In this document: piece by piece, positions 50,980 to 51,510 of the stretch | Numbering within the stretch: position 1 is the stretch's first letter | How the letters are laid out: every line of letters begins with the position of its first letter | Source of the DNA: Escherichia coli | Lineage (GTDB): Bacteria; Pseudomonadota; Gammaproteobacteria; Enterobacterales; Enterobacteriaceae | Strand: one strand, 5' to 3' | Assembly: GCF_003790525.1 (NCBI RefSeq) | Contig: NZ_CP033635.1 | Length of the DNA stretch: 64,000 nucleotides | Notes under the pieces: model-generated | What the model was told of the DNA's origin: nothing | Database searches by the model: none | What the model saw: the letters and a program-made list of their open reading frames with translations, nothing else | Position numbers and translations under genes: made by a program

Positions 50980-51510
50980 ATGAGTTCTGTAATGAAATTT
51001 TCTGTTGTTAATGCAGTAGTGCTGCTGTTGCTGATTGTACTTACTGGTGTTTTTTATATGAAAAAGTCAAAAGAAATTGCAGTTGTTAATATCGATGCTA
51101 TTTATAATCAGTCTGCCGCCGGAGACATGGCCAGAAAACATCTGAATGAGGTTAAGAGTATTCTTGAAAAAGGATATGAGGATGCGCAAAAAGTATTCGC
51201 AGATAACGCGAATAAAGAGGCGCTGCTTCTTGATGCCAGACAAAAACTGGAACGACAATATGTTATTGAGGAAAATAGCGCAAAAATGGTGTTATCCCGT
51301 GCGATAGATAATGCTATAGGCACATGGAGAAAAGACAATCCTAAAAATATTGCCGTATTGTCTTCAGGTGTTGTGCTTGCGCATAACGAGTCAGCTGATA
51401 TCACCAAAGAAGTCATGACTCTGGTTGAAAAAGAAAATCTGGTTTTTAATAAATTACCCAAAGTGGAAGTGCACAATAAGAATGAAGAGAAACCAGAACA
51501 AAGTAAGTAA
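50980..51510 (+). CDS. Skp/OmpH-like periplasmic chaperone, 176 aa
   Basis: Hydrophobic N-terminus, then IAVVNIDAIYNQS and ADITKEVMTLVEK segments resembling the Skp family; lies 45 bp after the autotransporter stop. Confidence 0.6.
   Translation: MSSVMKFSVVNAVVLLLLIVLTGVFYMKKSKEIAVVNIDAIYNQSAAGDMARKHLNEVKSILEKGYEDAQKVFADNANKEALLLDARQKLERQYVIEENSAKMVLSRAIDNAIGTWRKDNPKNIAVLSSGVVLAHNESADITKEVMTLVEKENLVFNKLPKVEVHNKNEEKPEQSK

Follow-up and report, generated by a model that had tools for sequence, protein, structure and literature searches.

The window analyzed here, by which we mean the whole stretch of 64,000 nucleotides (nt) of Escherichia coli DNA (contig NZ_CP033635.1), contains a small open reading frame (ORF) of 176 amino acids with an ATG start (50980..51510, + strand), which lies on the same strand as the giant autotransporter gene upaE (43019..50932, + strand) and 47 nt beyond its stop codon. 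An original prediction, made from the letters alone, read this ORF as an accessory paralogue of the periplasmic chaperone Skp (OmpH) that is dedicated to its neighbor. It put the gap at 45 bp, which is slightly too short; the length of the ORF and its hydrophobic N terminus are both borne out by the ORF list and translation. The protein begins MSSVMKFSVVNAVVLLLLIVLTGVFYMKKSKEIAVVNIDAIYNQS, and its hydrophobic N-terminal stretch is MSSVMKFSVVNAVVLLLLIVLTGVFYMKKSK; the alternative start M5 (50992) is the choice of several gene callers and of homologues. The presumed client, UpaE, is a 2637-amino-acid classical autotransporter adhesin of the AIDA type with an ESPR-type extended signal peptide. 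The prediction was also right that the large upstream ORF is an autotransporter: its C-terminal 450 amino acids score 389 bits on the autotransporter β-barrel model TIGR01414, and its RefSeq name is 'phase-variable autotransporter adhesin UpaE'. The junction region is 100% identical to that of strains such as SMS-3-5, where the RefSeq annotation is UpaE. The gene order is dsdC, ipuB (− strand), ipuA, the ipuS spacer, ipuR, upaE, and the Skp-like ORF, followed in most strains by tRNA-Arg and yfdC. Below we argue that the Skp-like gene is linked to autotransporters well beyond this locus, and that its product probably acts as a membrane-tethered helper of large type V proteins.

The family membership and fold of the Skp-like protein are secure and are already reflected in database labels. 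While the window protein itself (RefSeq WP_000100042.1) is labeled 'hypothetical protein', near-identical alleles, including that of CFT073, are labeled 'OmpH family outer membrane protein' in RefSeq, and a 98%-identical E. coli protein bears the UniProt automatic name 'Chaperone protein Skp'. Profile comparison places the resemblance to Skp beyond chance at the level of the family and not for the single sequence. Searched singly, the ORF matches Pfam OmpH (PF03938) below threshold (independent E-value 0.011, 16.3 bits), and NCBIfam models gave noise only (RseP and SctR at E-values of 0.005 to 0.05, far under their cut-offs). A match to Pfam DUF1993 (E = 0.004) was dismissed as common to only 2 of 60 homologues. 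These 60, which form alignment A1, were taken from 163 relatives of about 140 to 250 amino acids found at E ≤ 1e−3 when 1.84 billion cluster representatives were searched exhaustively with phmmer. Pfam OmpH is matched by 35/60 of them at E ≤ 1e−3 and by 55/60 at E ≤ 0.1, the best at 7e−8. The four best PDB profile matches of the family alignment are all OmpH or OmpH-like proteins (E about 1e−3), and hhalign aligns the family with E. coli Skp over 126 columns at 88% probability (E = 2.8e−6), using a Skp sequence that agrees with PDB 1SG2/1U2M. In a profile-sequence alignment, the two stretches IAVVNIDAIYNQS and ADITKEVMTLVEK, which the original prediction had compared with segments of Skp, line up with the very positions in Skp that it had named. 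The OmpH/Skp profile search that it called for therefore returned a match at the family level, and, together with the predicted fold, these transitive matches uphold the proposed Skp/OmpH-like identity.

An AlphaFold2 model built with A1 (mean predicted local distance difference test [pLDDT] score of 91.7; predicted template modeling score [pTM] of 0.77) comprises a helix (residues 4-27), a strand (32-36), three helices (38-44, 46-72, and 79-119), a second strand (123-128), and a short C-terminal helix (142-150) that carries the D-I-T motif. Helices 46-72 and 79-119 form a long antiparallel pair, so that the Skp protomer architecture, a small β body with a long α-helical hairpin, is found in the model; the Skp-fold domain as delimited by AlphaFold2, Foldseek, and hhalign spans residues 32-151 (51073..51432, + strand). 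The ten best Foldseek matches in the PDB are exclusively Skp (1SG2/1U2M), SkpA of the type IX secretion system (T9SS; 8GL8), and an OmpH-like protein of Caulobacter (4KQT), with probabilities of 0.98 to 1.00, and beyond such Skp, SkpA, and OmpH-like structures nothing in the PDB fell below E = 2.6. In AFDB50, the top match is the 98%-identical E. coli protein, and all other neighbors are annotated Skp/OmpH. The structure prediction suggested earlier thus returned the Skp protomer; for the trimer it yielded summary scores. Three copies of residues 28-168, joined by 30-residue Gly-Ser linkers and modeled with a 17-row alignment, gave domains of pLDDT ~90, linkers below 30, and a pTM of 0.69; by these summary statistics, the model is weakly compatible with a defined trimer.

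At either end the protein departs from Skp. The N-terminal segment (residues 1-27; 50980..51060, + strand), a probable uncleaved signal-anchor, holds a 20-residue hydrophobic stretch with neither an AxA site nor a lipobox cysteine; in the alignment it stands where homologues have a lipobox (L-x-G-C) or signal peptide, LTGV being matched to LSGC. N termini were compared for 151 matches, and lipoboxes were counted over 136 family members: 72/136 have one, with Asp at position +2 (Cys-Asp) in 29 of the 72, while other homologues have AxA-type signal peptides. Cys-Asp is an inner-membrane retention signal by the Lol rules of E. coli. The Cys-Asp members include an autotransporter-linked protein of Yersinia ruckeri, with the lipobox LLSGCD. 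Judged by these N termini, the family looks inner-membrane-tethered, either through a lipid or, as in the E. coli clade, through an anchor that stays uncleaved, and a periplasmic location of the domain would be the parsimonious reading of the homologues' export signals. The original picture of a soluble periplasmic Skp therefore stands as to family, and is at odds with the apparent uncleaved anchor and with close lipoprotein relatives bearing Cys-Asp. The C-terminal motif F156-x-x-L159-P160-x-V162 (51445..51465, + strand) is specific to the family in the homologue alignments: F156 and P160 hardly vary among the 60 homologues, and in closer homologue sets L159, P160, and V162 are invariant and F156 invariant or nearly so. 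It is modeled with high confidence (pLDDT 97 falling to 84) and has no counterpart in E. coli Skp, whose last element is the DIT helix; the hhalign alignment stops at residue 149.

Comparison of alleles indicates that the Skp-like ORF is a real gene under purifying selection, because the ratio of nonsynonymous to synonymous divergence (dN/dS) is 0.19 against CFT073, 0.34 against the pAPEC allele described below, and 0.13 against Salmonella enterica diarizonae, with dS reaching ~1.8. It is carried by 252 of 5426 complete E. coli genomes (in 258 places), full-length in 250 of the 252. The counts for the 3' end of upaE are identical, and a query spanning that end together with the Skp-like gene is covered at ≥80% in 248 genomes. 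Its location in the ipu island, between upaE and tRNA-Arg/yfdC, and its presence in 252/5426 genomes mark the gene as an accessory paralogue distinct from housekeeping skp, as had been proposed. Two allele classes occur in E. coli (124 genomes at ≥99% identity and 124 at 95-99%), and the adjacent 3' kilobase of upaE (49900-50932) is ≥99% identical in 248 genomes. Between species, the Skp-like gene has a higher dN (0.14-0.23) than the barrel (0.03-0.04), making the helper the faster-evolving of the two.

Linkage to autotransporters extends far beyond this island. Relatives outside the upaE locus were picked by rank or by a shared sequence motif, blind to context, and in 11 of 13 informative lineages, the window counted, the gene is immediately preceded by a type V gene of the same orientation, at 25-100% identity of the Skp-like protein. 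Loci L007 and L009 end too near the gene to show upstream context and are outside these 13. The 10 further lineages beyond the window contain relatives at 25-78% identity. In E. coli C10/C11, a Skp-like gene cut by the insertion sequence IS66 follows another autotransporter, of the ECSE_1600 type and in another island, by 59 nt, whereas gaps of 47 nt recur on the IncY P1-like plasmid pAPEC201602, behind a frameshifted upaE-like gene with PapI/PapB regulators, and in S. enterica diarizonae, where the whole module of invertase, GerE-type gene, and 2632-amino-acid autotransporter is present. Two metagenomic, Enterobacterales-like contigs pair the gene with AIDA-type barrels (L006, gap 57 nt; L017, gap about 58 nt). 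Y. ruckeri has it twice, on plasmid 2 after a 1675-amino-acid autotransporter (24 nt) and on plasmid 1 after a degraded S6-protease autotransporter (66 nt). The remaining partners are a BigA-type autotransporter (L020/L021, 9 nt), an 1873-amino-acid protein with a PF03797 β-domain (L022/L023, 434 nt), and a YadA-type trimeric adhesin followed by a TpgA-like gene (L013/L014, 24 nt). One further lineage has a relative divergent to a POMP-repeat protein, and the one exception has an RTX neighbor. A profile scan of contigs with alignment A3 confirmed no locus among GTDB species representatives. The analysis supports a close and specific linkage of the Skp-like gene to the autotransporter. Co-occurrence with upaE, which the original prediction had proposed to check, is exact in the 252 E. 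coli genomes, and in place of a gene found widely without an autotransporter beside it we find same-strand type V adjacency in 10 lineages besides the window. Partner passengers span at least four architectures (AIDA-, BigA-, and protease-type, and trimeric); since they are unrelated, the recognized feature would be a generic one of type V clients, such as size or β-domain, and not one passenger.

Several of these loci have features of their own. On pAPEC201602, a phage-plasmid (L003 2795-12543), the upaE-like gene is split by its frameshift into ORFs of 917 and 1720 amino acids, and the PapI/PapB-type regulators stand ahead of the module in place of ipuA/ipuR; this arrangement implies a mobile module that has come under another kind of regulation. 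The C10/C11 locus (L002 11865-12248) is a mosaic: identity to the upaE locus is 92-94% over the final ~90 nt of the autotransporter, the hairpin, and the 5' portion of the Skp-like gene, and does not extend to the remainder of this ECSE_1600-type autotransporter. In L017 (2762-2830), a T-run differs in length by 1 nt, so that the anchor segment is split from the Skp-like domain and the gene is called from the equivalent of M27; the difference may reflect assembly error, decay, or slippage. L013 (814-5792) and L014 hold a three-gene unit of an ESPR/YadA-type trimeric adhesin, a TpgA-like BamE/OmpA protein, and the Skp-like gene, joining two helper kinds to one adhesin.

Upstream of upaE, the window contains the phase-variation apparatus of the island. 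Its second tyrosine DNA invertase, ipuB (40109..40678, − strand), is identified through the RefSeq annotation of the identical SMS-3-5 locus, and the tyrosine DNA invertase ipuA (41427..42056, + strand) by NF007370 (250 bits) and its RefSeq name. The invertible promoter element ipuS (~41997-42289) overlaps ipuA at its 3' end as well as the 317-bp spacer between ipuA and ipuR; its inverted-repeat arms (41997-42014, inside the ipuA 3' end, and 42272-42289) lie 257 nt apart, and agree with the published 260-bp ipuS and 317-bp spacer (PMC6083910). The LuxR/GerE-type regulator ipuR (42374..42994, + strand) is the first gene of the published ipuR-upaE operon. On the other side of the Skp-like gene, a P2-family prophage (~51941 onward; 52820-54232 and beyond) with ogr/Delta, a MazF-type toxin, and capsid genes replaces the usual tRNA-Arg/yfdC in the window, and ARAGORN found no tRNA between 51400 and 55000.

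On these lines taken together, the best reading of the gene, with a probability of about 0.55, is that it encodes a Skp-like holdase that is tethered to the inner membrane and helps large type V proteins. With ipuS in the ON orientation, ipuR-upaE is transcribed, as published, and read-through of the U-less stem-loop behind upaE would then give expression of the Skp-like gene. Its uncleaved N-terminal segment would hold the protein at the inner membrane with the Skp-like domain in the periplasm, as the homologues' signal peptides and lipoboxes suggest, and a small Skp-like trimer may form, for which the three-copy model offers weak in silico support. Such a trimer could act as a local holdase that captures the unfolded UpaE β-domain or its very long passenger at the exit of SecYEG, and would keep the client secretion-competent and protected until it is passed to the general chaperones and to the β-barrel assembly machinery and translocation and assembly module (BAM/TAM). 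In other autotransporters, ESPR-type signal peptides are reported to prolong residence at the inner membrane (PMC8151025). The helper would supplement housekeeping Skp, SurA, and DegP upon sudden synthesis of a 271-kDa client, and its effect would be quantitative, in efficiency or yield and in less envelope stress, as opposed to all-or-none.

Several points weigh against this reading. The papers on the locus both present a two-gene operon, and a strong hairpin stands between upaE and the Skp-like gene, leaving co-transcription putative. Functional UpaE is displayed by K-12, which has no Skp-like gene (PMC6083910). Not every member of the wider family is linked to an autotransporter; one lies beside an RTX protein. 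The hydrophobic segment is preceded by K6 and followed by KKSK, charges that give no clear preference for a periplasmic domain, and the trimer rests solely on the pTM of 0.69 of a linker-fused model.

The K-12 result bears on how far the gene is needed. The study that defined ipuS and UpaE describes ipuR-upaE as an operon of two genes and mentions neither a downstream gene nor Skp nor chaperones, and the reverse primer for its pUpaE clone reaches no further than the upaE stop codon (PMC6083910). In K-12 this clone gave full-length, surface-located UpaE of 271 kDa, biofilm formation, and adhesion to extracellular matrix (PMC6083910), so the Skp-like gene is dispensable, at least when UpaE is overexpressed with housekeeping Skp present, and can be at most an enhancer of UpaE display, not essential to it. 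A second study of the locus measured ipuR and upaE only. In CFT073 (L024 1-1453), RefSeq flags upaE as a frameshifted pseudogene; the 2018 paper saw UpaE of 271 kDa in locked-ON CFT073. An alternative hypothesis is that the gene is a generic spare paralogue of Skp, a periplasmic chaperone of outer membrane proteins with no preference for UpaE that hitch-hikes on the island. The secure fold and family membership would suit such a paralogue, as would the independence of UpaE from the gene in K-12 and a set of partners (AIDA-type, BigA, S6 protease, YadA) too unrelated for passenger-specific recognition. However, chance linkage fails to account for type V adjacency in 11/13 lineages at 25-100% identity and leaves the exact co-occurrence with upaE in E. 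coli unexplained, and the short gaps with their conserved hairpin are a further difficulty, so that we hold this alternative to be unlikely. The idea of a dedicated chaperone is strengthened by the broad synteny and limited by the gene's dispensability, and is unproven: what stands is the tight linkage to autotransporters, whereas dedication to the UpaE passenger is unestablished, given a clone that works alone and partners that are unrelated.

The protein could instead be an envelope tether or regulator that is no holdase, and that retains or positions the autotransporter, as TpgA does for AtaA, or dampens the stress or toxicity of the giant adhesin. A membrane anchor or Cys-Asp lipobox in place of a soluble form, the additional F..LP.V motif that Skp lacks, helical arms shorter than those of Skp (seen as hhalign gaps), and the operon shared with a TpgA-like gene would all fit this role. 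Yet the whole Skp architecture is kept, including the helical arms with which Skp binds its clients, and a PDB profile search at E ≤ 10 found no relation to SadB or TpgA; we therefore give this role rather little credence.

Between the upaE stop codon and the Skp-like gene stands a stem-loop (GTGGCAGGAGG gga CCTCCTGCCAC; 50940..50964, + strand). This G+C-rich hairpin of 11 bp is stable (free energy about −24 kcal/mol, z −3.5) and has no U-tract, and a terminator scan of the region did not call it. A stem-loop of 11 bp stands ~10 nt past the autotransporter stop codon in every UpaE-like locus, six others having it besides the window (L002, L003, L006, L015, L017, and L004). The stem in C10 carries a compensatory change (G>T with C>A), and the arms in L006 and L017 are wholly different in sequence; in Y. 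ruckeri, a hairpin with a U-run overlaps the 3' end of the autotransporter gene. Conserved in this way, the stem-loop may serve as an attenuator or as a 3'-end stabilizer that sets the ratio of adhesin to helper. As a terminator that would explain the hairpin in full it was rejected, since no U-tract follows the stem in E. coli and purifying selection acts on the gene behind it. A promoter scan found 6 sites against 4.8 in shuffled sequence, which is no excess, and the Shine-Dalgarno sequence of the Skp-like gene is weak. A silent or decaying ORF behind a hairpin that ends the transcript, or a domain that stays in the cytoplasm, would agree with the stable stem-loop directly upstream, the weak Shine-Dalgarno sequence and absence of a convincing promoter, the disrupted copies in C10/C11 (by IS66) and L017 (by the 1-nt change that splits off the anchor), and the ambiguous flanking charges, but is very improbable in view of dN/dS values of 0.13-0.34 over pairs with dS up to ~1.8, an ORF intact in 250/252 E. 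coli genomes, a hairpin without a U-tract, and homologues that bear clear export signals.

On the tethered-holdase reading, the gene is best filed with a branch of the Skp family that is held at the membrane and associated with type V secretion. Broader, and more tentative, is the proposal that it belongs to an unrecognized class of secretion-system-specific chaperones, namely inner-membrane-tethered Skp-like trimers that are encoded with large type V proteins (classical AIDA-, BigA-, and protease-type autotransporters and trimeric adhesins), catch their clients at the Sec exit, and measurably raise client display. The class would be spread through Enterobacterales and, to judge from structural neighbors in AFDB, may reach as far as Desulfovibrio-like bacteria and Synergistetes.

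Textbooks present classical autotransporters as the simplest of secretion systems, relying only on general factors (Skp, SurA, DegP, and BAM/TAM). If the broader proposal is true, it would overturn this view of classical autotransporters as lacking dedicated helpers. A Skp-like gene that travels with autotransporters of several architectures would add a third helper class beside SadB and TpgA, the first for type Va. SadB and TpgA are the only reviewed co-encoded helpers, and both serve trimeric autotransporters (PMC8151025); a 2026 survey of trimeric autotransporter neighborhoods does not mention Skp/OmpH and judged further helpers unlikely. While the OmpH/Skp label was already known from RefSeq and UniProt, the autotransporter link is new insofar as our literature search, whose coverage is incomplete so that a prior description is possible, found nothing on Skp-like or OmpH genes beside autotransporters. 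The gene offers a way into the periplasmic handling of passengers of 200-300 kDa, and its co-expression may improve autotransporter-based surface display. UpaE influences biofilm formation, matrix adhesion, and kidney colonization in uropathogenic E. coli, so that a third gene in its phase-variable unit, overlooked until now, bears on a literature that describes an operon of two (PMC6083910).

Among known systems, Skp itself (HlpA/OmpH; 1SG2, 1U2M; PF03938) shares with the UpaE-linked protein the order of its elements, which runs from β strand through a long helical hairpin to a second β strand and a short helix, and the placing of the IAVVN and DIT motifs (hhalign 88%, Foldseek probability 1.00). 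Identity to Skp, in contrast, is only ~17-20%, with the single-sequence Pfam match below threshold, and the helical arms are ~20 residues shorter. Where Skp has a cleaved AQA signal peptide and closes at the DIT helix, the UpaE-linked protein has an apparent uncleaved anchor and an extra conserved F..LP.V tail. The genomic settings differ likewise: housekeeping skp sits in the bamA-skp-lpxD cluster, whereas the gene described here neighbors an autotransporter in a phase-variable island of 252/5426 E. coli genomes.

The closest functional analogy is SadB, which, like the Skp-like protein, is small and has its gene next to that of a type V adhesin, SadA of Salmonella (PMC3953254, PMC8151025). 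SadB is a trimeric lipoprotein of the inner membrane that faces the periplasm and improves display of the adhesin without being essential. Its coiled-coil lipoprotein fold is unrelated, the profile search of the PDB returned no chain of SadB, and it is known only with trimeric autotransporters, whereas the partners of the Skp-like gene are mainly classical (Va). TpgA of Acinetobacter is likewise an accessory gene product, co-transcribed with AtaA and raising the surface level of the adhesin (PMC8151025), and in one metagenomic locus a TpgA-like and a Skp-like gene stand together after a YadA-type adhesin. Unlike the Skp-like protein, TpgA has a BamE plus OmpA-like architecture in place of the Skp fold, and binds peptidoglycan and the finished adhesin. 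Recruitment of a Skp-family protein to one secretion system is seen in SkpA of the T9SS extended translocon (8GL8, PMC10994853), which is also among the top structural matches, although it belongs to another phylum and another secretion system, forms part of an outer-membrane translocon, and is only 10-12% identical. Through the assistance that SadB gives to SadA and through SkpA in the T9SS, there are therefore precedents for reading the Skp-like protein as a secretion-specific helper.

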